A DNA stretch of 58,806 bases, counting the filler, from Gonapodya sp. JEL0774 (taxonomy: Eukaryota): the NCBI GenBank assembly GCA_027604505.1. It is 8 parts of 8 records of this genome, joined end to end, with 100 filler letters (N's around TTAATTAATTAA, not from the genome) between each part and the next. Parts side by side here need not be neighbours in the genome. Positions count along the whole stretch, not along the records: positions 29,511 to 36,770 come from JADIIX010000517.1; 7 more parts are not named here. The stretch is one strand, 5' to 3'. Below, piece after piece: positions 15,397 through 44,659 of this stretch. The position numbers and the translations under genes were made by a program. The notes beneath the pieces were generated by a model, which saw only the letters and a list, made by a program, of their open reading frames with translations, was not told where the DNA came from and did no database searches. Numbering within the stretch: position 1 is the first letter of the stretch; each line of letters starts with the position of its first letter.

Positions 15397-18300
15397 TCAT
15401 ACGTCAATTGTTCGTTGAGCATTGGCAAGTGCCTTGATTGCGCTTCTCCGAGCGTAGCTGATTTTGTTGTCTGGAGGATGGAGAGAGGGGAGAGAGGAGA
15501 CGGTGTGTGAGTGACTCAGCGACTCTGAGCGAGAGCAAGCGGGAAGTCAAACTCTGATACTCACAATAAAGGTAAAGCGACGTCAAGGTGGAATTGGTCT
15601 TGAGGGCCTGAGCAAGCGCGGTGGCGCCAGTCTCACCGATCGAGTTGTCTGGAGTCGAGAGAGAGGAGAGAGGAGACGGTGGTGTGTGTGTGTGTGTGTG
15701 TGGGACTCGGCAGTCTGAGCAAGACTGCAAGAGCGAGAGGTCACACTCTGATACTCACCGTAAAGGTTGAGCGACGTCAAGGTGGAGTGGGTCTTGAGGG
15801 CCTCAGCAAGCGCGGTGGCGCCAGTGTCACCGATCGAGTTGCCTGGAGTCGAAGTAGAGACAAGAGAGGGGAGCAATGAGACGACGAGTGTGTATGTGTG
15901 TTTGTGTGGGACTCTACGACTCTGAGCGAGAGCGAACTGGAGGTCACACTCTGATACTCACCACTAACATTGAGCCACGTCAACGTGGAGTTCGTCTTGA
16001 GGGCCTCAGCAAGCGCGGTGGCACCAGTGTCACCGATCAAGTTGTCTGGAGTCGAAGTAGAGACAAGAGAGAGGAAAGAGGAGACCGTGTGTGTGTGTGA
16101 GAGTTCATATGTATGTGACTTAGCGACTCTTGAGCGAGAGCGAGAGATCACACTCTGATACTCACAACTGACATCGACTGACGTCACAGTGGAGTTGGTC
16201 TCGAGTGCCCCAGCAAGCGCTGTGGCACCAGCCTCACCAATCAAGTTGTCTGGAAGAGAGTAAAGACGAGAGAGAGGAGAGAGGAGACGGTTTGTGTGAG
16301 GTGTGTGAGACTCAGCGACTCTGAGCCAGAGCAAGCAGGAGGTCAAACTCTGATACTCACTCCTGAGATCGAGCGAATTCAAGGTTGAGTTGGTCTTGAG
16401 GGCCTCAGCAAGCGCTCTGGCGCCAGCCTCACCAATTGAGTTGTCTGGAGTCGAAGTAGAGACGCGAGAGAGGAGAGAGGAGACCGTGTGTGTGTGCGTG
16501 AGTGAGTTCATGTGTATGTGACTCAGTGACTCTTGAGCGAGAGCGAGAGGTCATACTCTGATATTCACTGTAAAGGTTAAGAGACGTCAAGGTGGAGTTT
16601 GTCTTGAGGGCCTCAGCAAGCGCTCTGGCGCCAGCGTCACCGATCGAGTTCCCTGCAGTCGAAGTAGAGGAGACAGGAGAGAGGAGACGGTGTGTGTGAG
16701 AGATAGTGTGACAGACTCTGCGACTCTGGAGTGTGAGCAAGATGTCACACTCTGATACTCACAATAAAAGTTAAGCGATGTCAAGGTGGAGTTGGTCTTG
16801 AGGGCTTTAGCAAGCGCGGTGGCGCCAGCCTCACCGATCAAGTTCCCTGCAGTCAAAGTAGAGGAGAAAGGAGACGGTGTGTGTATATGTCAGTGTGACA
16901 GCCTCTGCATCTCTTGAGCAAGAGCGAGCAGGAAACCAAACTCCGATACTCACCAGTGACATCAAGCGACGTCAAGGTGGAGTTGATCTTGAGGGCCTCA
17001 GCAAGCGCTCTGCCGCCAGCGTCACCAATCGAGTTGTCTGGAGTCAAAATAGAGGAGAGAGGAGACGGGGTGTGAGTGACTCAGCGACTCTGAGCGAGAG
17101 CAAGCGGGAGGTCAAACTCTGATACTCACTAGTGACATCAAGCGACGTCAAGGTGGAGTTGGTCTTCAGGGCCTCAGCAAGCACACTGCCGCCAGCCTCA
17201 CCGATCGAGTTGTCTGGAGTCGAAGTAGAGGAGAGAGGAGACGGTGTGTCTGTGTGTCAGTGTGACAGACTCTGCAACTCTGAGCGAGAGCGAGCAGGAA
17301 ATCAAGCTCTGATACTCGCTCGTGAGATCAAGCGATGTCAAGGTGGAGTTGGTCTTGAGGGCCTGAGCAAGCGCGGTGGCGCCAGTCTCACCAATCGAGT
17401 TGTCTGAAGGCGAGAGAGAGGAGAGAGGAGACGGTGGCGTGTGTGTGTGTGTGTGTGGGACTCTGCAGTCAGAGAGAGAGCGGGAGGTGACACTCTGATA
17501 CTCACCGTAAAGGTTGAGCGACGTCAAGATGGAGTTAGTCATGAGGGCCCCAGCAAGCGCGGTGGCGCCAGCGTCATCGATCGAGTTGCCTGGAGTCAAG
17601 AGTGTGGAGAGTGGAGCGAGGAGACAGATGAGACGACGAGCGTATATGTGTGTTTGCGTGAGACTCTGACTCTGAGCGAGAGCGAGGGGGAGGTCACATT
17701 CTGATCCTCACCACTGACATCGAGCGACGTCAAGGTCGAGTTGGTCTTGAGGGCCTCACCAACCGCGTTGCCGCCAGCGTCACCGATTGAGTTCCCTGAA
17801 GAAGTGAAGGAGAAAGGAGCAGAGAGAGAGGTGAGAGAAGACGGTGTGCCTGACTTTGCGAGTCTGAGCGAGAGCGAGCAGGAGGTCACACTCTGATACT
17901 CACCATAAAGGTTAAGCAACGTCAAGGTGGAGTTGGTCTTGAGGGCCTCAGCAAGTGCTCTGGCGCCAGCGTCACCGATTGAGTTCCCTGCAGTCGAAGT
18001 AGAGGAGAGAGGAGAAGGTGTGTGTTTGTGACCATGGGACAGCTCTGTGACTCTGAAGTGAGAGCAAGAGGTCATACTTTGATACTCACAATAAAGGTTG
18101 AGCGACATCAAGGTGGAGTTGGTCTTGAGGGCCTCAGCAAGCGCGGTGGCGCCAGCCTCACCGATCGAGTTCCCTGCAGTCAAAGTAGAGGCGAGAGGAG
18201 AGAGGAGAGAGGAGACGGTGTGTGTGTGTGTGTCAGTGTGACAGACTCTGCGACTCTGAGCGAGAGCGAGCAGGAAATCAAATCCTGATAGTCACTTGTG

Positions 18301-21300
18301 ACATCAAGCGCCGTCAAGGTGGAGTTGGTCTTGAGGGCCTCAGCAAGCGCACTGCCGCCAGCGTCACCAATCGAGTTGTCTGGAGTCAAAATAGAGGGGA
18401 GAGGAGAAAGGAGAGAGGAGACGGTGTGTGAGTGACTCAGCGACTTTCAGCGAGAGCAAGCGGGAGGTCAATCTCCGATACTCACTAGTGACATCAAGCG
18501 ACTTCAAGGTGGAGTTGGTCTTCAGGGCCTCAGCAAGCGCACTGCCGCCGGCCTCACCAACGAATTGTCTGGAGTCGAAGTAGAGGAGAATGGAGATGGT
18601 GTGTGTGTGTCAGTGTGACAGACTCTAAAACTCTGGAGTGAGAGCAAGTGGTCACACTCTGATACTCACAATAAAGGTTCAGCGACGTCAAGGTGGAGTT
18701 GGTCTTGAGCGCCTCAGCAAGCGCACTGCCGCCAGCGTCACCGATCGAATTGTCTGAAGTCGAAGTAGAGGAGACGGTGTGTGTGTGAGACAGTGTGACA
18801 GACTCTGGGACTCTGGAGGGAGAGCAAGAGGTCACACTCTGATACTCACAATAAATGGTAAGCGACGTCAAGGTGGAGTTGGCCTTGAGGGCCTCAGCAA
18901 GCACTCTGGCGCCAGCCTCACCGATGGAGCTGCCTGTATGTATGTATGTATGTGTAAGTAAGTGGAGCGTGGGTGGGGTGAGTGAGTGGGTGTGAAAAAA
19001 AGCTGGAAGTGGTAAAGGCCCCTTCCCCCTCCACCTACTCCCCACTTAGAGTAACCAATCTTCTTAACGTCATCGAGACTATCGTACGGTTGTATTGAAG
19101 CGCCAGGACCAAAGCTTGAACTAATAGCACTTCATGGGTAATGCAATTCAGAAGTTAGTATCGTTTTTGAGGCCCTCTACTGCCAGTGATTCGAAACTGT
19201 CCGAGACTCACCATTTCCTCCTGTCAAGGTGACCTCTGAGTCACCGTTTAAAACGTCTTTCAAAATCCTATCTCTTTGCCATTGATTTAAATTTTCCAGT
19301 AACCTTCTGAGCCTCCGGGGGATATCTGAATAAGTATAGCAGTGACTTAAGAGTACAAGGGGCCGGATAATGGACATAATCCAACCTTCCACGCCAATGG
19401 TCCGAACAGCATTTCGCACCTCCTGTGCCTTCTCAATGTTTTGTTCAATCCCATGACCACGTCGATAGCACATAACCAGATTCAATTGCGCTATTTTGTG
19501 CCCTTCAAGAGCTGCTCTTTGATACCACCGAAATGCCTCCGTGTAGTCCTGTGGTACGGCAAACCCAAAGTAGCGTATGTCGCCCACTGCGTTCATTGCT
19601 TCTGCTGACCCCTGGTTGGCATATTCGATGCAATATGGTACCACGGATTTGAAGTCTTCAGAGGAAAGTCGTCCCTCCTTAAAATACATCACCAATGATT
19701 CAAATGATCTGGTTACCCCGTCCTTCAAAGATTTCAAGAAGTTTTCCATGGTCGGGTTCCGTACAATATTTTCTTCCTGCTCATTGTCAATTTGTTTCTT
19801 CAGGGGGTTCTTTGTCTCAATATCAAATATGGGCTGCAAAGCTTCCACTTCGACTGATTCTATGATCTTCTCGAGAGCTCTAACAATGTTCTCGAAACTC
19901 GGGCGTCTTCCAGGATTAGCATCCCAACATTGTGTAATCAAGACTTTAAGCTCAACAGGAATGTTCCAAAAGTGGTCAAGATTGGGTCTAGCACCACTTT
20001 TCACTTTCTCTGGTACATCGTCTTCGTCCATGTCGGCGAGTGGGATATCTCCAAAACTCCAGATTTCGTAACAGGTGACTGCGAATGCAAAGACATCTGC
20101 TTCCTTGCTCCCAATCCCATTGCTAAATAGCTCTGGCGCCATCCACCTGAGTGTTCCTACTCCTCTGTGAGAAGCTGAAGGTTCTCGGCTGGTGTTTTCC
20201 ACTTTTTGAGACAGCCCAAAGTCCATCAGTACTGCTCTCCCATTTTCGTCCACCAACACATTGTTCCCTTTTAGGTCACGATGAATGTAGCCAAGTGCGT
20301 GCAGCCATTTCATCCCATCAGCAACATCAGATATCTAGCAGTCAGAGGCAACGTCAAGTTCAAGTAGGGTAGGAGGGTTCACTATACCCTCACAAGTTGA
20401 AGCAGATCCCTCATAGGAATTGCTCGCTTCTTCTGAAGATAGTCAACAACGGTTCCATGTCTTAATAGTGGTGATATCACAAACGGCCAGGGTTGTAAAG
20501 CTGCTCCATAAACGGGGAGAATTCGCGGATGTGTGGATACAACTGTCCACAAGTCAACCTCTTCTATGAAGGACTGCCGGAAACACATAGTTACGTAATA
20601 ACATACCGCAAAACTCCTTCAAACTGACTTACTTACAGTGATACCCTGCTCCGACAATGGGCATTTCACTGCAACCTTTTGGCCTTGCCATGTGGCTTCA
20701 AATACTTCACCGAAACGACCCGTTGCGAAAGGCACTCTATTCGTATTCAACTCAGAGTAGGGAATACTGCGAACAGAATTCTTCCACGGACTGTCATGGA
20801 GAACTTCAGAATCAATGTCGGATTCTTGAGGTTTGACGCCAATGGATGTCCTCTTCCTATCACGTTGGTGTTGGCTCCCATTTGATATGCTCCTGGTTTG
20901 ACGCCTATTACCAGAGAGACTTCTTGTTCGGTGGCTACCTACCGATGAACACCTGCTCAACCGCTTCATGCTTTCGCTTATTCTCCTCACATCTTTGCGG
21001 GCTCTTTTAACTTCTTCCCATGCACCTGCGGCTTCGCTTTGTGCCTTTTTCACTTCGCTCTCTGCTTTTTGTAACGCTTCTTGGGTTTTGGAGTGTCCAG
21101 CTGCATTGAGAATTTCCGCTCTGTTATTCTGGACAATATGGTCTAGGTGGAGAACCAGCTGCAGGAAAGGTTCTCAAGAACAATTTCTTTGAACTGCAAC
21201 ACGTAAGGTCACTCACAGAAAAGTCTGCTAGTAAACCTCCAAGGGTCCTCTCATGAGTAGCTATGCTTTCAGACATCTTTTGGGGCTCCAAAAGCGAATT

Positions 21301-21807
21301 TGAAAGTCGTTTGAAGATGTTAGAGTTCTTTTTCTTTGTGCATGCCTCCAGAATCGCCTCCAGCAAGCTGAAATATAAAATATTCAAGGAAAAAGTGCGT
21401 GTTTTGCACGGGTGGTACTCTCACCGTGACAATCGTTCCTTGTATCCATGAAAATATTCCTTCAAAACCACCTCTTCTATTTCCTTTAGTGATAGAATCG
21501 CTTTCAACAGCAGAGCGGTTCGTGATGCCAAGAGAACCAAGCGTTCTCTATTCTGTAGTGAAGTCTTCAAAGTGTCGTGAATCTTCCGGAGAATTGCGAC
21601 AACGGACTCCAAAAAAGGAACCATGTCCGCCTTCGCGACAGCTTCTATAATGGAAAGGAAGAAGTCCACCGAATTCGAGGTCGCGATGCGTCTCCATTGG
21701 GGGAGCTCCTCGGCCAGACCAAGCTCCACGGCAGTTCCATTGAACAATTCCTCGGCAGAGAGCGCTTCAAAACGTTCTCGCTCCTCGCTCCTCTGGAGTG
21801 TCAGCAT
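15397..21807 (-). CDS. MLKL-like N-terminal domain - coiled coil - TKL kinase - SEL1 repeats - 18 single-exon RI/NLRC3-type LRRs plus cap exon
   Basis: VPFLESVVAILRKIHDTLKTSLQNRERLVLLASR (MLKL-NTD-like); GRFGEVF, VAVK, HRDLKGNN, DFG, GTLRWMAPE, DVFAF; SEL1 QDYTEAFRWYQRAA; LRR exons NSIGxAGAxALAEALKTNSTLTxLxL; terminal exon 15470-15397 NKISYARRSAIKALANAQRTIDV*. Confidence 0.88.
15565..18933 (-). repeat. Tandem array of 18 exon+intron units (84-nt LRR exon + ~90-125-nt homologous intron)
   Basis: Exons at 18850-18933, 18670-18753, 18486-18568 (83 nt), 18296-18379, 18090-18173, 17904-17987, 17712-17795, 17506-17589, 17320-17403, 17130-17213, 16954-17037, 16763-16846, 16569-16652, 16361-16444, 16166-16249, 15962-16045, 15759-15842, 15565-15648; each bounded by CAG and a GTGAGT-like donor. 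Confidence 0.93.
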
Positions 21808-26600: not shown

Positions 26601-27016
26601 AGACGTGGAGTAGGAGGAGCTCTTTGTTCGTGTTGAAGCCCAGATAAAGAACAGGACGCGGCCACGTATACACCAGCAAAAGGGCCAGAGGGACGGAATC
26701 AGCCTTTCCACTCCCGCTGGGCTAAACCATATACCCGCCTGCCAGACAGAGAAAATAACATGTAAATTCCCCAATTTATTCGCGGTGGGTGTCTCTGCTG
26801 CTTGTGTGCCCAGGTACTGTAAGTTGGTAACTGAACCTACTTGATGGCTTCCGCCATAAACTACCAACATACTTCGCTCGTAATACATTCTATTACTGTT
26901 CTGTTACTCTGCATTCTATTGTCACAAAATGGGAATACATGTTTCTACTTTGGCCCCGTCGTTGCGCCCGGTGTGTGCCCTTAGTCACATAGCATCACTC
27001 CCCCGAACAAATCCCC

Positions 27017-28640
27017 ATGGCCACTTTCAAAGATCGCGCTCTCATAGACGCCGTCGAAAACTCCGACCTTGATGGCGTGACCAAGGCTCTCAGGGACGGC
27101 GCGGACCCCAACGCGAGAAAGAGGGTGACACTTACTTGCGACATACAAGCTGGGCGATTCACGGACACGATCTCGGCGGAGTCGGCGATCGTCCGCGCGG
27201 TGGTCACCGGAAGGGCCGATGTTGTGGAGGCGTTGCTTGTCGCTGGAGCGGTCGTGAACGGAGCTGCGCTCGAGTGGGTGCTGCCGAATCACGCGGCGAA
27301 CTCAGCTTGGCCCGGTCAGAAAAAGGACTACTGGGACAGTTCTCGATGGAGATGGAAGATTACTTTTCCGTCCGTGTTGAGCTTTGCACTGGGTCGAGGA
27401 GGGAAGTCCACTAATAACCAGTCCCCGACTGATGATTCAGGTTGGAACCAGTCCGACACCGACAAGGGTATCATTCGTCTCAACAAACGCGGTAGTGATG
27501 TCATCCTCCAAAACCCAAAGGACGAGAATCAAGCTTTCGAAAAGATCACCCTTGAACCCCGTCTGGAAATCATCGCCGTCCTTCTGAAACACGGTGCAGC
27601 CATCACCAACGAGGTGCGGGCATTCATTCGTGGGTACCATGATCGGCAGATCAAGGATCTCGTCGAAGCCAAGGCCCAAAATGAGCTGGAAGTCGTTCTT
27701 GCGTCGATGGTTCCGAATGCGATGTCCAATGTGGAGTTGGCCAAGTTGGTCGCCGAGCAAGGCAAACACATGGCTGCCCTCAGTTCGCAGCTCGCAGAAC
27801 AGGGCAAGCAAATCACAGCACTCGCCAAGCAGCTCACCTCTCTTGAAGTGGAGAACGCTGCTCTGAAAGTTGACAACGCCGCCCTCAAAGTTGACAACTC
27901 CGCTCTCAAAGGGGCGAGTCTTTCTCTCAAAAACGATCTGTCCACGACAGAAAGGAGGACTCTCGACCTCGAACGCCGTTGTGCAACTCTGGAAACTTCT
28001 CCGCCCGCGCGCACCCTCCAGGCAGATTCAAGCTTTTCTCCGCAACTTCATACCTCGTACCATCCTGGCACTTCTCGACTTGCTGACATCGATCGCCGTG
28101 TTCTTCTCGTCGAACGCGAACTCGCAACTCTCCGCGGTAACCCCCTTCCATCCGCACCACCTCCGCCTATTGACGTGAAACGTCTCCTCTGGGCCGTTGC
28201 AAGATTTGACCCGAGTGGCCCGGACGAGATCCATGTTGCGGTGGGACATCAAGTGTTTGTGAATCTTCAGTACCCGGATGGGTGGGGTACCGTGAGTGTT
28301 TGAACAGCGAGCTACCAAGGGACGCGAGTTTTCATCACGTTTGATGAATATACCTGCCTCCGTTGATCACAAGGGTCTCAACACCACCACAAACCAGCAG
28401 GGCTTCTTCCCCATGGGCTGTCTCTCCGACGATCCCTCCGCTCTCAACCTCAACCCTGGCTCGGGCTCCAACACTGCCTCTTTTGCCCGCCGTGTCGCTT
28501 CAGTCGATCGGGTCGGTACTCCAGTGGCTGGTCAGCAGGGTGTCGGTGGCGGCGCGGGAGGGTACCAGAACCAGGCTTACGCTCCGCTGACGACGCAGTT
28601 GCGGGGGACGTGGGATGGGAGGGTGGGCGGTGGCTGGTGA
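27017..28640 (+). CDS. Ankyrin-repeat - coiled-coil - SH3 protein (2 exons)
   Basis: ALRDGADPNAR, DVVEALLVAGA; heptad repeats ENAALKVDNAALKVDN; SH3 AVARFDPSGPDEI...YPDGWGT / GLNTTTNQQGFFPMGC. Confidence 0.82.
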
Positions 28641-29510: not shown

Positions 29511-30218
29511 GTCTTGAGTGCGTTGGCCACCGCCCTGGCGCCGGCCTCGCCGATCTCGTTCCCTAGCAGAAGAGAGACGGAGTGGGTGCGTGACCAAATC
29601 CAAACATGCACCCGGGGCTAAAACTCAAAAATCAAAACTCACTACCGAGGTCAAGCGATGTCAAAGTCGAGTTGGTCTTGAGTGCGTCGGCCACCGCCCT
29701 GGCGCCGGCATCGCCAATCCCGTTATCTAGCAGAAGAGAGACGGAGTGGGTGCGTGACCAAATTCAAACATGCACCCGGCGCTAAAACTCAAAACTCAAA
29801 ACTCACCATGCAGGTCAAGCGATGTCAACGTCGTGTTGGTCTTGAGTGCGTCGGCCACCGCCCTGGCGCCGGCCTCGCCGATCTCGTTATCTAGCAGAAG
29901 AGAGACGGAGTGGGTGCGTGACCAAATTCAAACAAACACCCCGCGCTGAAACTCAAAACTCAAAACTCACGCCTGAGGTCAAGCGATGTCAACGTCGTGT
30001 TGGTCTTGAGTGCGTTGGCCACCGCCCTGGCGCCGGCCTCGCCGATCTCGTTCCCTAGCAGAAGAGAGACGGAGTGGGTACGTGACCAAATTCAAACATG
30101 CACCCGCGGCTAAAACTCAAAAATCAAAACTCACAATCGAGGTTAAGCAATGTCAACGTCGAGTTGGTCTTGAGTGCGTCGGCCACCGCCCTGGCGCCGG
30201 CCTCGCCGATACTGTTAG
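29511..30218 (-). repeat. 164-bp tandem units = 84-nt LRR exon + 80-nt near-identical intron (4 complete + 1 partial)
   Basis: Exons 30135-30218, 29971-30054, 29807-29890, 29643-29726, partial 29511-29562; intron gtgagttttga...ctctcttctgctag. Confidence 0.93.
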
Positions 30219-32596
30219 CTAGAAGACGTGCGCAGAGTGTGAAGTGAAGAGAGATGGACAATCCGAGAGTTCAAACAACAGTATGAGTATTGCATTTTGG
30301 AGGTGACGTGGGTCAATGGACAAGTTCTGAGATCAGCCGCAGCACCACGAAGGTGTTATGAAACAACTCACATCGCAAATCTAATTCTGTAGGATTTCCG
30401 TTGTAAAGTTGGAGAAGTGCATCTTGTACCTTCTTCCCAAGTTTCTTTTCGTCAGCGGTTAACTGCCTGGGGGTTCTCACAACACGAGCATTCTGTTTGG
30501 GTCCTGGAATCTGTCTTTTCTGCTCTGCTTCTTGGGCTTTGAGTAATCGACTCTCTTCATCGACCTTGAGACGCCTTGTTTCTTCCGCCTGCTTCTCGAG
30601 GACTGCCAGTCGCTCCCGCAATTCCGACTGTTCTGCTTCGAACTGCGCGCGAAGTCTTGCTTCGGTAGCCTTCTCAATGATTGCATGCTCTGCCTCAGCA
30701 AACATTGTGCGTTCTGTAGACGGTTTGGCCGATGGAGTTCTTGACGGAGATAATGCATACTGCGACTGAGATGGAGAGAGTGTGACTCCAGAGTCATGAC
30801 TACGTCCTTGTATCGACAAAAGGCGACTTGGTGGGGAGGGATTGTTCAAGTCGGGATATGCTCTCTTGAGTTCCGAAATTAAGGTAGCAAAAGTGGGTCG
30901 CTTGCCAAGCTGTGGGTCCCAGCAACGTCGAACAAGATCCTGTATTGGTTTGGGCATAGGAACAGTGGCGGCTAACTCGGCGTCATCGATTTCCTCGACG
31001 TCTCTGAGGTCCTCATAGGTTTCAATGTCTGGTCGCTCGCCCGACTTCATCACAGTTACGACAGCGTCATCGGCTACACCGGCGAACGGCATTTGAAGTG
31101 TGTACATCTCATACACAGTCATGGCAAATGCATACACGTCCAGTTTCTCAGTCAATGTAGGCTTTGTGGCAAAAAGCTCAGGGGCCATCCATCGTTTGGT
31201 ACCAACTCGGGCCAGCCCAGTGAGATTAGACACCTGTTTTGTGACAGCTGCGAAACCGAAATCGGTGACCAGAGCGTTCCCGAGATTGTCCACCAGCACA
31301 TTGGCGGCCTTAAGATCGCGGTGGAGGATACCTTTTCCATGGAGGTACTGCATTGCGGATGCAACGTCAAAGACGAGATGAACACGATTGATGTGCGGAT
31401 ATTTTTGGAGATACGAGAGGAGGTGACCATGCTGCATGTATGGTGACACCATGAACGGCTGGGTAGCAATGAGATTAGCTCCAAAGAGTTGCAGAATGTT
31501 TGGATGGCGCAGTTGTGACCAACGCTTGACTTCGTTGTAGAGAAGCTATGTACACATAATCCATGACCTGCTGTGTAACATCATATGCAATATGAATGAT
31601 CACTCACGTCCGTCAGCTTTTGGCTTGGGTTTCTCACAAGCAAACGCTTGAGAGCCACAGTACGGGTTCCACTCCACGTGGCCTTGAAGACTTCGCCAAA
31701 ACCACCAGAAGCAAATGAGTCTCCCTCGAGAACAATGTCGGATTCCGGGATATGCCAATCCTCCTCTGTAAGATCTTCTCCGGACAATCTAGAAAGGCTT
31801 GCACGGGTTTTTCTGAGAAGAATTTGTTCTCGTGGAGTAGCATCCCCTGTGGTGATAGCCGCTTGAATGGTTCGCAACACCTCCATTATTTGAGCGTTCC
31901 CAAGCTCCAGAGTCGCGAGTAATGTTGCGTCGTTTTTCTGCAGCTGTTCGAGCATATCTTGTGCTGCATTCTCTGCAATGTTTCGATCCGCGTTGTTTTC
32001 GGCGGCCCACCTATCAAGGTTCAACACCGCGGCAAGCTTAAGGGAGTCCGAAGCCATGTGACCAGGGATATTGAGAAAACACAACATACGAGTACCTACT
32101 TGAAAGTCCTTGACCATGGTTTGAAGTCTGAGATCAAACTCTTCGATTTCCTTCCGCGTCACACTGCTGTTCAGAATGCGGTACCATTTGGGTTTGCTTT
32201 TGACAGTCTCCAGAAAGTGAGCAACCTCTACCAGAAACCTTTGAACAAAGCCAGTAAGACACAAGAGTGCAGAGCCCTCCAGGAAGTTACCCACTTGGTA
32301 AAATCGACGGCATGTTTGCGGAGAGGTTCCCGCAAATCGGTGCTTCCGGGATCCATCCGGTGAGCGATAGCCTCCACGAGCAAGGCACATCGACTGGCAA
32401 GGCGCACTACGAGCTCTTTATTCTCTCGGAAGTCTTTTGCGACGGTGTAGACTGCGCGAAGACCTTGAGCGCAGGCTCCAAACACGGGGACATTGGTGAT
32501 AGTTCCGACGGCGCCCAGGACGGCAGCGACGCCATCAAGCAAGTTGCCGGCAAGGTGTGGATCAACTCCCTTGAAAGCACCTCCGTGCGCCTGCAT
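29511..32596 (-). CDS. Second MLKL-like NTD - TKL kinase - coiled coil - single-exon LRR array gene (3' end runs off contig)
   Basis: VPVFGACAQGLRAVYTVAKDFRENKELVVRLASRC (MLKL-NTD-like); GGFGEVF, VALK, HPNIL, HRDLKAAN, DFG, GTKRWMAPE, DVYAF; then LRR exons N(S/E/G)IG(E/D)AGARAVA(D/N)ALKTN(S/T)TLTxLxL. Confidence 0.88.
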
Positions 32597-32735
32597 GCTT
32601 TCGATTTCCGGGGAAACTCAGTGGGTGAGGGGGAAATCGGGACTGGTTCAGTCCACAGCTGTGGCCCAAGCAAAAACGAAACCCAATTGTCCAAAAGTGT
32701 AAGTCACACTCATATACCATGATTGAACGGCTATA

Positions 32736-33354
32736 CCATGATTGAACGGCCACCCCAAAACGCGAGTACTTTCATTTTCAAAATCACACTTTTCTTTTCA
32801 AAAGCACGTAATTTTGTAAGAAAAGTAAACTGTGGAAAACCAAATGTCAAAAGTACATAAAAATCGTTTTCTCTTCTTCAGGGTCCTGCACAACCTCGTC
32901 AATTTCACCATTGTCTCTTATCGTCTCCTTGCCAATGCCACGCTTCTTCCGATATCTTCGAATGCTTCGCTCGGAACAGCCTTGTACGTCTCCGAAATTT
33001 TCAATAAGAATCTGACTTATCTCCTCGTTGGAGTAGCGGGCGTGCACCAACACCGCGAGGTCCTCTTCCGACAACAGTTTCTCGACGTCCATGCGCCAAC
33101 AACGCTATCAACGCGTACCAGTGCGTCGTGGGGGACGGAGATCGGAGCTGTCCCCGCCGCTGAGCTGGCATCTCTCGGAGGCAGGGCCGTAAGGGGTTGT
33201 TGCACGAAATGTGTTTCCATTTGCACTTTTGCAAACATTCTATATTCACTTTTACATTTAACGCCTTTCCCTCAAAAAAAAGACATTTTGAAAATGAAAT
33301 GAACGAAATGGAACACGAAATAAAGTCAAAAGATGGGTGGCCGTTCGGTCATGG
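32736..33354. mobile_element. Small non-autonomous IR-bounded element containing a short HTH (Clr5-like) ORF at 32847-33092 (-)
   Basis: ccatgattgaacggccaccc (32736-55) vs gggtggccgttcggtcatgg (33335-54); inner IR tttcattttcaaaat/attttgaaaatgaaa; ORF YSNEEISQIL...CSERSIRRYRKKRGI. Confidence 0.55.
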
Positions 33355-33568: not shown

Positions 33569-36500
33569 ATGGCAGCCAAACATCATCTCACTCAATACTG
33601 GCAATTGGGATGGATAGCTTTCCCAATTTCGATTGCATGGAACTCAAATCGCCAGAAAAAGGAGTTGCAGGCTCCAAAGGGATGGCAGAATCTTGATGTC
33701 GAGGCAGCCAAGGCTCTGCCAACGAGAAATGCCATGGCCATCCAAACAGGCTCAGCTTCGGGCATTATCGTGCTCGACATTGATGACGTTGATGGTTGGC
33801 GACAATTTCTCCACGAAAACGACCAAGTCGAACCACATACAGTAACAGCACGTTCTCAAAGCGGCGGCATTCACTATTACTTCGAATGGAGCGAATCGGT
33901 CAACGACCTGAAATCCACATCTGCTCTTCTGGGTGGATGCGCAGATATCCGCAACAAGGGCGGCATGATTATCGCTCCACCGACATCGTTCGCCGTTCCG
34001 GGCGAAACCGAAGCACGGACTTACGCGTGGCTCGAGGGGAAATCACCATGGGATTGTGAGCTTGCTCAAATGCCAGACTGGCTCGCATTGGCTCTTCGTG
34101 AAAGAGGTGGCGGTAATTTGGGTGCTTCGAAGCGAGAGGCACGCATACAATCCACTGGCCCCGACTCCGTACCCACACCCTCCGTGGTAAAAGAATACAT
34201 TGCAGAATTCTACGCAATAATGCCAGACAACGTTGGCGATACCAAGTGGCTTGGCGATGGAGGAGGGTTTGCTGTGAGCACAAAAGTATATGATTGTTGC
34301 TTTAAAAAAGCGCCTCACAAAGGAAACAAGCAGTATCTTTTTGTGAGCGCGAATGGAGACATGTCACGTCGTTGTCACGACGGGGATTGTGTCGATAAAA
34401 AGTGGGGGAGTCGGAGAGTGCCTACAGACATAGTGAACGCTATCACGGCTCTTTTTGTCAGGATACCTGACGTCTCTCCTGAAATTGTACAAGGAGCTTG
34501 TCAGGAAGCTGTAACTCTTGTCAATGATGTGCATCCAGGCAATGCGAACGTTGCAATGGTTTATCGCCCAGACGCACACTCATTTCAAGGTGCTCTGGAC
34601 ACGTATTTTGGCCGGAAAGTGTGTCCATTTTGCGAACAGGGAAAATTAGTTGCTATTACAAGCAGGGAGGGTCTCGCGATTCGTTGCGATTCTGCTGTTT
34701 GTGGATACAGGTCACCAGCAAATGGAGCCATGCCCGTCGGCATGGATAAGTACAGCAGATTGGGAAACTTTTTCATGGTGGTCAACGTCAACGTCACAAA
34801 CAACAACGCAATAACTACCATCAACAATTTTGGCTCAGACGCTGACATACCGAGTTTGTTTCTCGGGGATGACGTCATGGTACGTCCTGAACCTGAACTA
34901 AATCGTCTCATACTTCACGCTCTTGGCGGCAGCGATAGTACGATGGCAAGACTCTTTGCTCGTCTTTATTCTGGGCGCGTGGCGTTTGCAGGTGGGAGGT
35001 GGTTCACCTTCTCCCACAATCGATGGAGAGAGGGTGACGAAAGTCAGGTGATGGCGATTATGGATGATCCAAATAATTCCGAGTTTGTTCGTGCTTTGTA
35101 TGACGCGCGCGCCGCATACACAAACGCAACGATGGACAAAGATGTCAAGGAGCAGAAACTGAAGCGCATCGCAGCAACGATAGTAAGCTCAGAGAGTCGC
35201 CATAAGCAAAGTGATATTGCCGCCATGTGCAAGAAGCCCACCCTTCTGGGTATCGCAGACGAGCTCTTTCTGGACAAACTAGACACAAATCACAAATTAC
35301 TCGGCTTTGACAACGGCGTTTACGATTTGAGCAGCCGTGTATTCCGCCCGGGCGAACCAGGAGACTACGTCTCGCTGAGCGTCGGTTACGATTTTGTACC
35401 GAACAAAATGTCAGATCCAGTTACAAGAGAAGAGGTCATGAGGTTTTTGGAAACTGTCTTCCCAGATGCAGGCGTAAGAAAATACACGCTTCTCTTTCTT
35501 GCATCGGCTCTCGAGGGCTACAACAAAGATCATAGATTTCATTTTGCATATGGCAAAAGTGGGCGTAACGGGAAAGGTATCTTGATGAAAATCATGGAGA
35601 TGGTCCTCGGAGGTTACATGACGATGGTCAACTCGACACTGATTTGCGGAAAATCCGCAGATGCAAATGCTGCCACACCACAACTCACCAAAATGGTCTG
35701 CAAGCGCTTCGTCTATATGTCCGAGGTGGAAGCCGGTGCAAGAATCAATGAAGAAGTATTCCAAAGACTTTGCGGTGGCGACAAACTTGTGATTCGGCCA
35801 TTGTTCAAAGAATCTCGTGAAGTTGACAACATGGCGAAAATCCTGATGTTGTGCAACGACATGCCTAAAATTGACGGAAGCAAGGATTCCAACAAACCCC
35901 GAATTGCCATCATTCCATTTGTTAGTAGATTTATTGACGGCCCGTGCGATCCTACAAAGCACGAATATCCCATTGACACTGAGCTCCATATGAAAGCGAG
36001 TCAATGGAAGCACGCAATGATGGGCATACTACTCGATTACCACAAAATCTACATTCGAGATGGTCTCAAAGATATACCTGAAGCCATGAAGCGCGCAAAA
36101 ACCCAATATCTCGGAGTAAACGATCAATCTCGTCTAGTAGACGAGTTCGTTCAGGAAAGCCTTGTCAAAGGTGGCCAAGGCATTGTCACGGAGGAATTGA
36201 TTTCTAGGTATCGATCGTGGGAAAAGGAAAACGGAGTAAAGCACCCCGACAGCGATAAAGAGAGAATCATGATGACGCATTTTGAATCAGGCTCAACTTA
36301 CAGACATTGAAAATGGCGCCAAGCGTGCCAATGTTCGCCGCTTCTACGATGCCGAGAAGAAGCGAAAGCATGGGTACGGAGGATGGAATTTTGTGACACA
36401 AGTACCGCGAGAGAAGGGGCTGAGCGAATGCGCACGCTCTGTGACATCTCTCATTGAGGAGAACATTGCACAGGCTGAGTGGATGGTAGACACACGGACG

Positions 36501-36870: not shown

Positions 36871-39397
36871 CCTTAAGTCAACGTCTGCTCTCCTTGGTGG
36901 TTGTGCAGACATCCGTAGCACTGGCGGCATGATCATTGCGCCACCGACTTCGTTCACCGTTCCGTGCGAAGCTGAACCACGTGTGTATACGTGGCTGGAG
37001 GGTAAGTCGCCATGGGATCATGAGCTTGCTGAAATGCCCGACTGGCTCTTACAGGCTCTTCGCGAGAGTGGAAGTGGCTCTGCTATCACTGTCAAACTAG
37101 GTCGTCCTGAGACGCACGTGCAACTCGACGGCCCTGACATTGCCACGACACCAGATTTGGTGAAAGATTACATCATGGAGAGTTTTGGGATTGTGCCAAC
37201 GTGTGTTGGTGGCACGAAATGGCTTGGTGACGGATTGGGCTATGCTGTGTCAACAAACGTTTTTGACTGCTGCTTCAAAAAAGCCCCACATAAAGGAAAC
37301 AAACAGTACATTTTTGTGAGCGCAGGTGGTGACATGACACGCCGCTGTCACGACGGAGATTGTCGGGAGAAGAAGTGGGGTCAACGCAAGGTCCCGCCGG
37401 AAATAGCTCAAGCTCTGCGGGAGTTGTTTCCATCGAAGCCAATAGTCGATCCGGAACTTATCGAATTGGCACGAAAAGAGGCGGCTGACCACGTAAACGA
37501 TACAGTCCCCGGAAATGACGCGATGGTCATGGCACTCAAAGCGGATTCGTCTGGATTTGAGGGATCCCTCAAAACCTTCTATAATCGGGATCTCTGTTTC
37601 ATGTGTGAGAAAGGGGTGTTGATGGCCACCACGAATAGTACCGGACTGGCTATAACATGTGATAATGCCTCATGTTCGTTCAAGATACCGGCAACAAGTG
37701 GCATTCCTGTCCCCGCAGACAAATATGCCAACTTGGGGAAGTTCTTCGTCATCATTCAGGAGCTGAATGTCACAAATATCACCATCAACAATAACATCAG
37801 TAACACAGATATTGGTCCGAACGAGTTTGTCAAGGACAATGTTCAATTTTTCGAGAGTGAAACATTGAACAGTACCTTCCTTCGCTCTCTAACGGGCGAC
37901 GGAGTGCTGATCGCAGATTTTATACAAGAGTATTACGCCGATGCAGATGTTGTCCACATAGACGACGCCGAGAGAAATAAAGCGTGGATGATTTTTACAG
38001 AGGGCAAGTGGAGAGCGATGAGTCTCACCAACATTGCAAGACGCTTACTGAGTACCAGTGATTTTCGTGGTCATTATAACCGTGCGTGGACTCACTACGC
38101 TGATCTCAATGAACCACGTAAGGCGAAGAGGATCAGCGACACGCTGACCGCTATTGGTGAGCCACATAAGCTCAAAGGCTATATGGGACTCACGGAGAGT
38201 TTTTTTGGTACGAAAGGTACTGAATTTCAGAGACTGAGAGATACAAAGCGCAATCTTTTGGGTTTTGAGAATGGTGTGCTTGATCTAGATGCATTTGTGG
38301 CGGGAAAAAACCCGTACTTCCGAGAGGCTGAGCCAGCCGACTACATTACCATGAGCACTGGCTACGCTTTTAGCTCCACAGAGGCACAGGACAAAGTGGT
38401 GAAAGGGCGCATTATGGAAGTACTCGCTCAGATTCAACCAGAAGCCGAGAACCGTGACTACCTTCTGAAGTTCCTCGCTTCAATGCTCTCTGGGGAGATC
38501 AAAGACGCCAAACTTATGTTCTTCGAAGGGAGCGGCGCCAACGGAAAGAGCATGCTCACAAAGGCCGTGGTGGCAGTTCTAGGGGACTACGGAGGAATGG
38601 CGAAAACGGAAATATTTACCCAGAAGGCAGGTGCTGACGCCCGAGCACCCAACTCTGCGATTGCCAAAATCGCAAGGGCGCGTGGAGTATTCTGTGAGGA
38701 AATTGAAGTTGGTGCGAAAATCAACACCAAGGTCATGAAGGAACTCACAGGAGCCAATAAAATCTCGAACCGCGCTGTGTATGCTCGTGAAGAGATGACA
38801 ATCGAACCGCAGTGGCATTTTGCAATCTGTGTCAACCACGCCCCGAGCTTTGCAGATGACAAATCCGATGGTGCTACACGCCGCATCGACATCCTTCCCT
38901 TCACTTCTTCATTTGTGATCAGTGGAGACATTGACCACGCAAATCACGTGTACAGAGCAGATCCTGACATGGCCGAAAAACTGGGAGGGGAATGGCGCAA
39001 TGCGTTTCTCGGAGTTCTGATGGACTACTGCAAGAGATTCCGGACAGAAGGTCTGGAAAGACCAATTGAAGTACTGGAAAGGCGCGAGGACTACATTGCA
39101 AGCAACAACCCCCTGTGGGACTTCCTGCAGGAGTCTCTTGTGAATAAACCTGACAGTGCAGTATCTCTGGATGAGATTCTCATACATTTTCGTCGGTGGT
39201 TTGTCACAAAGTACAGTGAAGCATCACTTCAGGCACAGTACCCAGAGTATGTTGAAGCTAAAACCCAGAGAAGAGGAGGTAAGCTCAAAGTGATTCGGGA
39301 GATCGGTGGCAAACTTCGACAGATGGGAAGAACAGTCAGTTTCGTCCGCGATAAGAACACATGTGTCATTGGGTACATGTGGAAAACGGACAACTAG
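36871..39397 (+). CDS. Second intronless Prim-Pol - D5-like primase-helicase (5' truncated by contig edge)
   Basis: DIRSTGGMIIAPP; LLGFENGVLDL; GSGANGKS; FCEE; KELTG; ICVNHAP; RRIDILPFTSSF; N-terminal half closely parallels the 33569 protein. Confidence 0.9.
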
Positions 39398-39620
39398 AAA
39401 TACAGCATCAGTATATAAACTACAATCAACTGCGTAGATTTCGCTACACTTTGCAGCCAGAATTATTCACACCACATTACATGCCCTATCGTCATATCAC
39501 TCTTCCCATCAAAAATGTGCCCACATACTGCGGGCCATGTAACATTCACTGGGTCAGCTTGGCCAAGCTGAAAATAAACAACATGTAAAAAACCCTGAAG
39601 AGATGTAGTGATGTAGATAT

Positions 39621-40213
39621 GTAGAGATGTAAAATGAAAAGTAAGAATGAAGGACGTAGCAAATATATGATTCAAAGCATGAAGTTCAAAAGACCTGCAT
39701 TCGGCTTTTCAAAGACAAAAAGACAATCTCACATTTTAAAATTATCATGTTTATCTTTCATCAATACATCTCAACAATCAGCACTCACACATAGAAAACA
39801 CTTGTAGAGACGTAGAGATGTAAAATGGAAAGTAAGAATGAAGGACGTAGCACAATATATGCTTCAAGCATGAAGTTCAAAAGACCTGCATTCGGCTATT
39901 CAAAAGACAACAGACAATCTCACATTTTAAAATTATCATGTTTATCTTTCATCAATACATCTCAACAATCAGCACGCACACATGGAAAACACTTGTAGAG
40001 ATGTAGAGATGTAGATATGTAGAGATGTAAAATGGAAAGTAAGAATGAAGGACGTAGCACAATATATGCTTCGAGCATGTTGTTCAAAAAGACCTGCATT
40101 CGGCTTTTCAAAGACAACAGACTATCTCACATTTCAAATTACCATGTTTGTCTTTCATCAATACATCTCAACAATCACCACTCACACAGGAAACACTTGT
40201 AGAGATGTAGAGA
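39621..40213 (+). repeat. Three tandem ~190-207-bp AT-rich repeats
   Basis: Units start ~39621, 39812, 40019 (gtagagatgtaaaatg(a/g)aaagtaagaatgaaggacgtagc...gacctgcattcggc...tcatcaatacatctcaacaatca). Confidence 0.9.
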
Positions 40214-40515
40214 TACAGAGGTGGAGAGTTTGGTGTTCGATCAGCAAGGGCTGCTGAAGGAGAGAGCACCCTGTTTGCACAGGAAAGATAGGAGTTATCG
40301 TGACTCGCAACAATGGGAAGAGTAGGACGTAGCTGTGATTATACAGTGTAAGGGCACCAGAGCGATGATTGACGCCACCTCAAATATGGTCTGCAGTTCC
40401 AAAAATATCTCGATATATCTCATGTTGATGTAATGCTTACTTTATAATAAACCAGACACGAGATATGGTGACTGCATGAAGGCAAAAATACAATTGACTC
40501 CGTTATACAGGCTTT

Positions 40516-40783
40516 GCAACCCCGCCTATTGCCTTGTTACAACTCCAATGTTGCTAGTTTCAACTCCGCCTGTTGCCTCTTACAACTCCAGTGTTGCGAA
40601 TTTCAACTCCCCCTATTGCCTTGTTACAACTCCAATGTGCTAAATTTAACTCCGCCTGTTGCCTCTTACAACTCCAGTGTTGCTGATTTCAACTCCGCAT
40701 TGTGCCCTTTACAACTCCAATGTTGCTAAATTTCAACTCCGCCTGTTGCCTCTTACAACTCCAGTGTTGCTAATTTCAACTCC
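40516..40783 (+). repeat. Iteron-like array of ~13 CAACTCC-core units at ~21-23-bp spacing (43/86-bp higher order)
   Basis: ttacaactcca(a/g)tgttgc alternating with tttcaactccgcctgttgcc; inverted GGAGTTG copies follow at ~40822-40927. Confidence 0.85.
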
Positions 40784-42916: not shown

Positions 42917-44071
42917 TCATTTGGGTCCAGGATGTGTATTCACGATACAGCCGGATGTAGTTGATTGCTGCATACAAAGCATATGAGCGAGGTGTGCTCC
43001 CAAAGCGTCTGACGCGGAGTCACTAATCAAATACTGGCACGTTTGTAGTAGTGAGAGCAGAGCAGAAGGGTCTTCGCAGACGGGAAGATTGAAACGCCCC
43101 GTACACGCGTAATTCTCGAGTGCTCGAAGTTGTTGAATGGTGATATTTGGTGCTGGTACCTCGATATGTGTTTCTTCACTCGCGCTGCGAGAACAATCAT
43201 CAATCACATGCTTCCAGATTTCAAATGAGCCCGAAAAGAGTGCATTGCTCTCATCAAAATCCAGAAATCCGTCTTTCGCGAGAATGCGAACTTTCTTCCC
43301 GGCCCATCGTTGCCTCTTTGTCTCTCTGAGCTGTAGTCCGTTCTCATCGCAGGGGTTACCGACTCCACCCACTTCGATTGCTGGTATCTCAGTGTGAGTT
43401 TTATTTCGACCAATGAGTCCATACTTTCGACCGCATTCATCGCCAAAGCCGTTCCCGAGACTGGAATCGCGGGTGAGTGGGAGGGAGCAGAAAACACATT
43501 TGCCAGAAAGTTTTCCCAGATACGACCCCATGTCGGCCGGATTCCGATCCAATAAGGCGAAAAAATTGAGCAGATCTCGCGTGTCCTCATTCCCAGTCGC
43601 CGACCCGTCGACGCGAATGATTGCACTTTCCATCCCCGTCTCCAGTCGATCTCCAAGTGCTCTGTTTCCAGGCGACCTCGTGAACACCTTCACACTGTGT
43701 CCGTTGTACACTGCGCGCAAGCTCCGAACCACCACTGTTTCGAGCTTGGACACGCCGTCGACAATGACATTCACGGACACTTCAGTCTTCCATGGGACTG
43801 TGCTGTTCCAGCTGGGTAGACAAGATGCGTCGACGCGGATCGACATCGAATTACCGGTAATAGTTGGTGCTGTTCCGTTTGACCTGAACCTCTTGGCCGC
43901 TTCAACGAACAATGATATGATTCCGCTGTATGTGCCCGGAGGAACACTCCATGTTTGTTGAGCAAATCGATGCCATCTCTGTAAACTCCGAATCGACGTC
44001 ACAATTTTGAGCCCTTCGACCTGCTGTGTTTTGTTCAACGTGTTCCATACGTCGCGTTTTGAGGAGATCAT
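42917..44071 (-). CDS. Intronless ORF: DUF6011-like Cys motif plus C-terminal BTB/Skp1-like domain
   Basis: GKCVFCSLPLTRDSSLGNGFGDECGRKYG; KVRILAKDG...WKHVIDDC...IEVPAPNITIQQLRALENY...LLSLLQTCQYL. Confidence 0.6.
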   Translation of the reverse strand: MISSKRDVWNTLNKTQQVEGLKIVTSIRSLQRWHRFAQQTWSVPPGTYSGIISLFVEAAKRFRSNGTAPTITGNSMSIRVDASCLPSWNSTVPWKTEVSVNVIVDGVSKLETVVVRSLRAVYNGHSVKVFTRSPGNRALGDRLETGMESAIIRVDGSATGNEDTRDLLNFFALLDRNPADMGSYLGKLSGKCVFCSLPLTRDSSLGNGFGDECGRKYGLIGRNKTHTEIPAIEVGGVGNPCDENGLQLRETKRQRWAGKKVRILAKDGFLDFDESNALFSGSFEIWKHVIDDCSRSASEETHIEVPAPNITIQQLRALENYACTGRFNLPVCEDPSALLSLLQTCQYLISDSASDALGAHLAHMLCMQQSTTSGCIVNTHPGPK

Positions 44072-44659
44072 CTCGTCCAGAGTGAGTGGGAATTGGAAAA
44101 GTCTGTCGACGTGTCCCCCAACTCGTCNNNNNNNNNNNNNNNNNNNNNNNNNNNNNNNNNNNNNNNNNNNNTTAATTAATTAANNNNNNNNNNNNNNNNN
44201 NNNNNNNNNNNNNNNNNNNNNNNNNNNGAAGAGTTTGTTTATAGTGTCCAGCAAACCAGATTTGATGGTGTGGTGGGGGTGGTGGATCTGTATTTGTTGT
44301 GCCACACACTGAGTATGAGGACGTGGTCATGGTGTGAGTTGTGTGCTGTTGTAGAACAGGGAGGGTGGCATTTTTGTGTCAGAATACAGGTGCCCTCTTG
44401 TGTGTGCTACTTAGTATATTACATGCCAGTGCACTCATCTAGTATACACTTATAGTACAAACAACACCACACAACCTTACACATATCCAACATTTTGTTG
44501 GTATTATCCTGACATGCAAGTGTCAGAATATAGATGCCCTCTTGTGTGTGCAACTTAGTATATTACACTTCAGTGCACTCATCTATGTGCCTGTGGCTAA
44601 TCTAGTATATACATATAGTACATACAACACCACACCACCTCCCACAGATCCAAGAGCAA

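Follow-up and report, generated by a model that had tools for sequence, protein, structure and literature searches.

A gene with the domain order MLKL-like helical bundle, protein kinase and leucine-rich repeat (LRR) array lies on the minus strand at the left end of a 7,260-nucleotide (nt) contig (positions 29511-36770; JADIIX010000517.1) of Gonapodya sp. JEL0774 (assembly GCA_027604505.1). Each LRR is encoded by a separate exon, the repeat units share a recent common ancestry, and a few exposed codons of these repeats carry an excess of amino-acid change. We judge it probable (roughly 0.6) that the protein is an intracellular non-self sensor, wherein ligand binding by the LRRs would switch the kinase, release the bundle and trigger membrane damage or defence signalling. 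Gonapodya is a genus of Monoblepharomycota, and its group consists of zoosporic fungi. The window analysed here is 58,806 nt long, filler included, and comprises eight contigs joined by N spacers; statements on the gene family and on repeat arrays cover these eight contigs of one assembly together with the listed protein-database matches.

Exposed codons change faster than adjoining introns

The LRR unit is a 28-residue ribonuclease inhibitor (RI)-type repeat, encoded by one frame-preserving 84-nt exon of constant phase 1, which is the design of an exon-modular LRR array. All four array introns are 80 nt long, have GT-AG ends and lie in phase 1, so each of them splits the codon for x8 in the motif L1-x2-x3-L4-x5-L6-x7-x8-N9-x10-L11 after its first base, leaving the other two bases to the following exon. 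The exon model confirms what a first-pass annotation of this region had described, namely four units with 84-nt phase-1 exons and a distinct 80-nt intron, and different junction residues in every unit (LNLD-W-NE, LDLR-H-NE, LDLH-D-NG and LDLG-R-NE) beside a constant helix (AGARAVA.ALKTN).

We took the six codons x2, x3, x5, x7, x8 and x10 as the exposed set and compared them with the remaining exon codons (the scaffold) and with the introns. Over the four units, 11 of 18 exposed columns are variable, compared with 6/66 in the scaffold and 9/80 in the introns (Fisher P = 2e-5 and 1e-5, the former for exposed codons versus introns), and a uniform spread of substitutions over exon and intron is thus rejected. 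Pairwise differences amount to 3-8 of 80 nt for introns and 8-13 of 84 nt for full exons. The earlier description of the introns as near-invariant holds in that 71 of 80 columns do not vary, but the exon scaffold is conserved to a similar degree (Fisher P = 0.79). Averaged over unit pairs, the difference is 0.06 for introns, 0.095 for synonymous sites and 0.035 for non-synonymous change in the scaffold, versus 0.45 for non-synonymous change in the exposed set and 0.72 at x7, x8 and x10. The rate of change at these few predicted contact residues is about tenfold that of the adjoining introns.

A simple codon model (shared branch lengths, equal base frequencies, small sample) yields a ratio of non-synonymous to synonymous rates, omega, of roughly 11 for the exposed codons and 0.5 for all others. 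An omega of 1 is rejected with P = 4e-8 on the best tree with introns as the neutral reference, and with P = 3e-5 when introns are left out. Furthermore, none of 20,000 neutral simulations reached the 14 observed changes, either at the fitted or at doubled branch lengths. Relaxed constraint alone does not explain this pattern, because the exposed non-synonymous rate exceeds both the intron and the synonymous rates and because simulations at these branch lengths do not attain the observed count. The excess reflects either an advantage of new changes or the retention of older differences in the face of homogenisation, and both constitute selection for diversity. The gene shows the combination that characterizes fungal highly conserved (HiC) repeat receptors, which is near-identical repeats together with positively selected surface sites.

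The hottest sites are x7, x8 and x10, and x2, x3 and x5 each have at most one variant. A single-sequence model of the full-length protein has a low predicted local distance difference test score (pLDDT 42) and was used only for strand-helix alternation in the last repeats (pLDDT 50-60). In this low-confidence model the strand spans L1-L6, which would place x7, x8 and x10 at the strand end and in the following loop. The proposal that diversifying change affects the concave LRR face is borne out by the amino-acid excess at xxLxLxxNx positions over intron and synonymous rates, but the change falls mostly on x7, x8 and x10, past the strand, and the in-sheet positions barely vary.

Domain organization of the protein

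The exon model begins with an ATG at 32596 and runs for 810 codons with no stop. It is identical over all 765 residues to database protein P0001, which is labelled Gonapodya and matches the large exon at 100%, and it adds 45 residues. Pfam recognizes in P0001 a kinase domain (PF07714) at residues 255-516 (E = 6e-46) and LRR_6 (E = 7e-15). When a profile built from nine N-terminal domains was searched against PDB, seven MLKL sequences ranked first (E = 8e-9 to 7e-7) and the next match had an E value of 0.018. The alignment to full-length MLKL spans both the bundle and the brace (profile positions 49-203, including a W-A-x-E-x-x-x-D stretch).

A model of the N-terminal domain (pLDDT 74.6) contains a helix at 154-178 and beyond, in the brace region. 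In a structural search of 48,161 chains with this model, the MLKL N-terminal domain and full MLKL ranked first and second, with Z scores of 13.3 (root-mean-square deviation 2.9, 138 residues aligned) and 12.9, and plant AtMLKL3 ranked fifth. The profile (best E = 8e-9) and the two leading structural matches agree with the MLKL-like domain named at first pass, and the N-terminal region is predicted to be an MLKL-like four-helix bundle with brace, homologous to MLKL.

The kinase retains the motifs GGFGEV, VALK, HRDLKAAN, DFG and WMAPE. With glycine loop, VALK, HRD and DFG intact, it does not appear to be a catalytically dead pseudokinase of the strict animal MLKL type. Its best relatives of solved structure are Raf-like, CTR1 and RIPK1 kinases. 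Among the best 120 of 874 matches to the LRR region, the top ones are RNI-like proteins of Mortierellaceae and animal NLRC3, and an atlas search with the whole protein returned kinase clusters, some of which carry MLKL_N or LRR domains.

This layout resembles that of NLR proteins, in that an N-terminal effector is combined with C-terminal repeats that form a superstructure. However, no NACHT or NB-ARC domain was found on P0001 (Pfam to E 0.1 returned kinase, LRR and MLKL_N), and the centre of the protein is a kinase, which rules out membership of the NLR or STAND proteins. An LRR receptor-like kinase is ruled out because the kinase precedes the LRRs. No hydrophobic segment was found between kinase and LRRs; the eight most hydrophobic 19-residue windows start at residues 15-25.

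Table 1 Coordinates of the MLKL-kinase-LRR gene and of the related locus in the window
Feature	Positions	Strand	Content and basis
Exon 1	32295-32596	-	ATG, glycine-rich hydrophobic N-terminal helix, first helices of the MLKL-like bundle; model identical to P0001; modelled helices 13-33, 37-54, 60-79
Exon 2	32100-32238	-	Remainder of the predicted four-helix bundle; model identical to P0001, profile and structural match
Exon 3	31608-32036	-	Predicted brace helices (W-A-A-E-N-x-x-D aligned to the MLKL brace), kinase glycine loop, VALK lysine
Exon 4	30372-31545	-	Remaining tyrosine kinase-like (TKL) kinase (HRDLKAAN, DFG, WMAPE), low-complexity linker, long coiled-coil helix 570-633, LRR cap, first strand
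Intron before the array	30219-30371	-	153 nt, phase 1, dissimilar to the repeated introns
LRR exon 1	30135-30218	-	84 nt
Repeated intron 1	30055-30134	-	80 nt, phase 1; split codon Trp
LRR exon 2	29971-30054	-	84 nt
Repeated intron 2	29891-29970	-	80 nt; split codon His
LRR exon 3	29807-29890	-	84 nt; P0001 ends here
Repeated intron 3	29727-29806	-	80 nt; split codon Asp
LRR exon 4	29643-29726	-	84 nt; absent from P0001
Repeated intron 4	29563-29642	-	80 nt; split codon Arg
LRR exon 5	29511-29562	-	52 nt, cut by the contig end
Related locus on another contig	15397-21807	-	MLKL-like domain, kinase, Sel1, 18 LRR exons (17 of 84 nt, one of 83 nt), introns of 92-124 nt, terminal exon

The array is visible as a 164-nt tandem repeat of 4.4 copies (29511-30226) and holds 4.6 LRR exons up to the contig end, which falls inside it. 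Exon 5 equals exon 2 over all of its 52 nt. The terminal 77 nt of the contig recur without a mismatch 492 nt further in, and the array is therefore very likely longer, with the assembly broken at the repeat. All 12 combinations of exon end and exon start at x8 give sense codons, which allows exon skipping or unit exchange to generate new x8 residues without stops. We set aside the idea that stop-free junctions are a design for skipping, given that only three different exon starts occur, which is too few. No inverted or intronic spare exons were seen at this locus.

Probable duplication and exchange of repeat units

The window contains a second LRR array on another contig, and the units of the two loci differ. 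The four units described above form their own clade against the 17 intact 84-nt units of the other locus (ultrafast bootstrap, UFBoot, 100), and at eight columns the loci share no base; the 83-nt third exon of the other locus was left out of these unit comparisons. Mean unit difference is 0.30 between loci, 0.18 inside the other locus and 0.12 inside the MLKL-kinase-LRR locus at 29511-32596. The two intron types have only short ends in common (local score 20.7 versus 14.6 for shuffled sequences). The independent homogenisation of the two loci that had been suggested is supported by the separate clades.

Concerted evolution, also suggested earlier, finds support in one locus and not in the other. 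At 29511-32596, six of seven informative columns fit a single split of units 1 and 4 versus units 2 and 3, the seventh lies in x7, and no recombination signal is present among the four units. Plain recent tandem duplication suffices for this array, and four units cannot separate it from ongoing conversion. A permutation test on the other locus shows excess compatibility between neighbouring sites (P = 0.006), and its most similar units do not lie side by side; both observations point to exchange between units there.

The other locus encodes an N-terminus that matches the MLKL-like profile (E = 6e-15) and is 26% identical to that of 29511-32596. The architecture is the same only approximately, because a Sel1 repeat is found in the other locus alone and the two kinases are 37% identical. 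Its x7 and x8 codons, considered without the rest of the exposed set, have an omega of 3.3 (P = 1.5e-4). Fourfold-degenerate sites are saturated between the kinases (13/55 identical), and the LRR exons are 43% identical at such sites versus 31% expected from composition; this is a weak hint, taken from sequence comparison, that the LRR cassette may be younger than the split of the genes and may have moved between them. The third LRR exon of this locus (18486-18568, minus strand) measures 83 nt with intact splice sites and shifts the frame unless it is skipped; possible explanations are an error in the assembly, a dead exon or a broken gene. One intron of this array (17214-17319, minus strand) starts with GC rather than GT.

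Relatives in Gonapodya and other fungi

At least seven more MLKL-kinase relatives with the same organism label occur among the matches listed, and only two have any LRR trace. The idea of an expanded family, drawn from two genes in eight contigs, is thus correct in that relatives exist, but two arrays in eight short contigs overstate the frequency of LRR forms because arrays break short-read assemblies. The four closest relatives share 55-66% kinase identity and fall into one clade with support of 100/100. Their tails comprise an LRR start, a degenerate LRR, a PNP_UDP domain and a stretch with no Pfam match, and a fifth relative has a PARP-like domain; P0004 and P0008 are close relatives in which a PNP_UDP or PARP-like domain stands in place of the repeats. 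Three more fragments bear the same label.

The N-terminal profile detects 1,014 proteins at E 0.001. Among the best 150, which are those listed, 145 were new, and we scanned the 100 of at least 400 residues for domains. A kinase is present in 78 of these, and 19 have kinase plus repeats (7 LRR, 6 TPR, 4 Sel1, 1 ANK and 1 WD40). According to the organism labels of 20 relatives, LRR forms occur in Polyrhizophydium, Homolaphlyctis and Entophlyctis, ANK and Sel1 forms in Rhizophlyctis, and TPR and WD40 forms in Mycena. The chytrid LRRs are 23-24 residues long and the chytrid kinases form a separate clade; for these two reasons, LRRs were likely joined to the MLKL-kinase module at least twice.

One chytrid relative carries 16 LRRs of another class that are 73% alike and variable at x3, x5, x7 and x8. 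The same variation profile is found in three Mortierellaceae proteins and one NACHT protein, whereas four other chytrid proteins and two NLRC3 proteins have old, divergent repeats; these are protein-level comparisons and do not constitute a selection test. The Mortierellaceae proteins P0121, P0123 and P0126 (1,000-1,300 residues) contain 15-20 RI-type LRRs that are 63-73% alike and variable at x5, x7 and x8, and their long N-terminal parts have no Pfam match. They represent another candidate family of fungal LRR receptors.

Proposed function and alternative explanations

In the sensor model, the array would grow and turn over by unequal crossing-over of exon-plus-intron units, a process that would keep scaffold and introns alike, and selection would retain or create different residues at the strand end and in the following loop. 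The LRRs would bind a variable non-self ligand. The kinase would act as the switch, in the place that the nucleotide-binding oligomerization domain (NOD) ATPase has in NLRs, and the MLKL-like bundle would provide the output. By analogy with known systems, a cytoplasmic location, LRR autoinhibition, kinase activity and cell death may be expected. As in the first-pass annotation, we infer pathogen recognition. A broader proposal, which we advance tentatively and regard as doubtful, is that fungi possess a second, NOD-less class of intracellular immune receptor of the form MLKL-kinase-repeat, in which one protein would be sensor, switch and executioner, and in Gonapodya new LRR specificities would arise as single-repeat exons are swapped or skipped, the most variable residue being encoded across the splice junction.

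Several observations weigh against the sensor model. The Pfam MLKL_N match on P0001 is weak (residues 48-167, E = 0.002, 18.4 bits versus a cut-off of 27), Z scores of 13 are near the level that unrelated helical bundles can attain, and Foldseek with the N-terminal model found no match at E 0.001, with MLKL only at rank 50. The axonemal RI-type LRR proteins DRC5 and LRRC34 are among the top solved-structure matches, and 59 of the 78 kinase-bearing relatives have no repeat domain. The variation test draws on no more than four complete units of an array that the assembly truncates. When the fitted neutral length is quadrupled, 1.8% of simulations attain the observed count, so part of the excess could stem from older divergence that was shielded from homogenisation. 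The full six-codon set is not significant in the other locus (omega 1.5, P = 0.11). Finally, the authors of the wheat Pm13 study leave open, in the accessible part of their report, whether the MLKL domain kills or senses (PMC10951266). This last point also suits an explanation that we hold to be unlikely, in which the protein is a recognition kinase under diversifying selection, its MLKL-like domain serves as scaffold, oligomerization module or decoy, its only output is phosphorylation, membranes are left undamaged, and its ligand may be an allorecognition or symbiont cue rather than a molecule from a pathogen. Such a role agrees with the retention of all catalytic motifs, unlike in animal MLKL (PMC10951266), and with the presence of the N-terminal module on many unrelated tails, including HECT, RhoGEF-CNH, GOLD and NADAR.

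A young tandem duplication in an ordinary signalling kinase, with exposed sites that are unconstrained or with short older tracts beside splice sites that escaped homogenisation by chance, strikes us as improbable. Exposed positions are indeed where all LRR proteins examined, NLRC3 among them, vary most, the single split noted above fits one duplication tree, two (L6 and I11) of three synonymous scaffold changes close to the strand end adjoin hot codons, and the six-codon test fails in the other locus. However, relaxed constraint caps the rate at the neutral level, which is far below the values for the six exposed codons and for x7, x8 and x10, and the Asn codon between x8 and x10 is invariant with no third-base change. 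More improbable still, to the point of being hard to sustain, is an assembly product made of collapsed or chimeric units that were stitched together from paralogues or alleles. The exact internal copy of the contig-terminal 77 nt is what a de Bruijn assembly leaves when it breaks at a repeat, and the identity of exons 5 and 2 fits as well. But adjacent periods share at most 50 identical nt, which allows units 1-4 to be told apart, and neither the splice sites nor the reading frame is disrupted. Chimerism, moreover, reorders real units and invents no new codons, and variation at the same two sites is seen in the other locus, whose array is complete.

Comparison with known systems

The systems below are compared on the accessible portions of the reports cited. 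Brown algal LRR-ROCO and LRR-kinase genes likewise have one LRR per exon, a constant phase and positive selection at a few exposed strand positions, and they are candidate immune receptors without direct functional proof (PMC3341825, PMC11378527). Their exons are 72 nt long in phase 2 and encode 24-residue repeats joined to a ROC-COR GTPase or a C-terminal kinase, in contrast to the 84-nt phase-1 exons, 28-residue RI-type repeats, N-terminal MLKL-like domain and kinase of the Gonapodya gene. Tetrahymena genes with 90-nt LRR exons share tandem exon/intron units, a junction residue supplied by two exons and expansion by unequal crossing-over, but these exons are in phase 2 and the genes number in the thousands (PMC6564038). 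The term 'positive selection' does not appear in the main text of that paper. Animal NOD/NLRC genes have the same 28-residue RI-type repeat, one per frame-preserving exon, with a border fixed by the strand (PMC6642158), but they are NACHT-based, and NLRC3 repeats are old (about 40% alike) and not homogenised.

Fungal NLRs with WD, ANK or TPR repeats, such as Podospora het-e and het-d, resemble the Gonapodya gene in their effector-switch-repeat order, near-identical repeats, swapping of terminal domains and diversifying selection at the binding surface (PMC4986451), and MLKL/HeLo-like effector domains are common among them (PMC9815663). The Gonapodya gene differs in that it has a kinase instead of NACHT or NB-ARC, each repeat has its own exon and the repeats are LRRs; a survey of 5,616 candidate fungal NLRs found no LRRs, according to its accessible text (PMC4986451). 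Members of the MLKL family, including animal MLKL, AtMLKLs, wheat Pm13 and MLKL-Sel1 proteins of Glomeromycotina, share the order of four-helix bundle, brace and kinase fold (PMC10951266, PMC8778642). Pm13, a proven resistance gene, encodes an MLKL domain and a kinase with all catalytic residues and is thus alike in its intact motifs (PMC10951266). The family differs in that animal and Arabidopsis MLKL are pseudokinases, none is described in these accessible texts with a C-terminal LRR array, and the Gonapodya protein is longer at its N-terminus by about 35 residues.

Surveys, and a 2025 review, describe fungi as lacking, or almost lacking, pattern-recognition receptors with LRRs and NLRs of the LRR type (PMC2939053, PMC4986451; review, PMC12881547). 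Soanes and Talbot found LRR receptors to be almost absent, yet they list four chytrid genes with LRR and kinase (PMC2939053, Table S8). Our literature search returned no description of fungal MLKL-kinase-LRR genes; most subscription papers and supplements lay outside that search, and the domain tables of PMC2939053 and PMC9815663 may list relatives. Each ingredient is known; a fungal gene that combines them and has a kinase where NLRs have the NOD seems not to have been described before.

Neighbouring features of the window

An insert at 32736-33354, some 140 nt upstream of the start codon of the gene, resembles a miniature inverted-repeat transposable element (MITE). It is bounded by 20-nt inverted arms that are 90% complementary and enclose a second such pair, and a 19-nt tandem duplication occupies 32713-32750. 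Head-to-head with the gene lies an intronless PrimPol/D5-type primase-helicase frame (33569-36310, plus strand), which matches Pfam PF09250, PF08706 and PF19263 as well as PHROG primase families and looks like a relic of a DNA virus or a large mobile element. A related second primase-helicase frame (36872-39397, plus strand; Pfam and PHROG matches) opens the next contig, which also carries a DUF6011 frame (42920-44125, minus strand). Elsewhere in the window are tandem repeats of 191 nt (3.1 copies, 39612-40214) and 43 nt (6.2 copies, 40517-40783), and a 436-codon open frame (26993-28303, plus strand) with a weak ankyrin match, a coiled coil and a proline-rich end.

Implications

The near-identical introns of the array provide a built-in neutral yardstick, which makes selection measurable within a single gene. 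In an early-diverging fungus, LRRs with the evolutionary signature of immune receptors are joined to a necroptosis-type effector via a kinase and not via a NOD. In chytrids and agarics the MLKL-kinase module is found with LRR, ANK, TPR, WD40 or Sel1 repeats, which suggests that a class of receptors parallel to NLRs has been overlooked.

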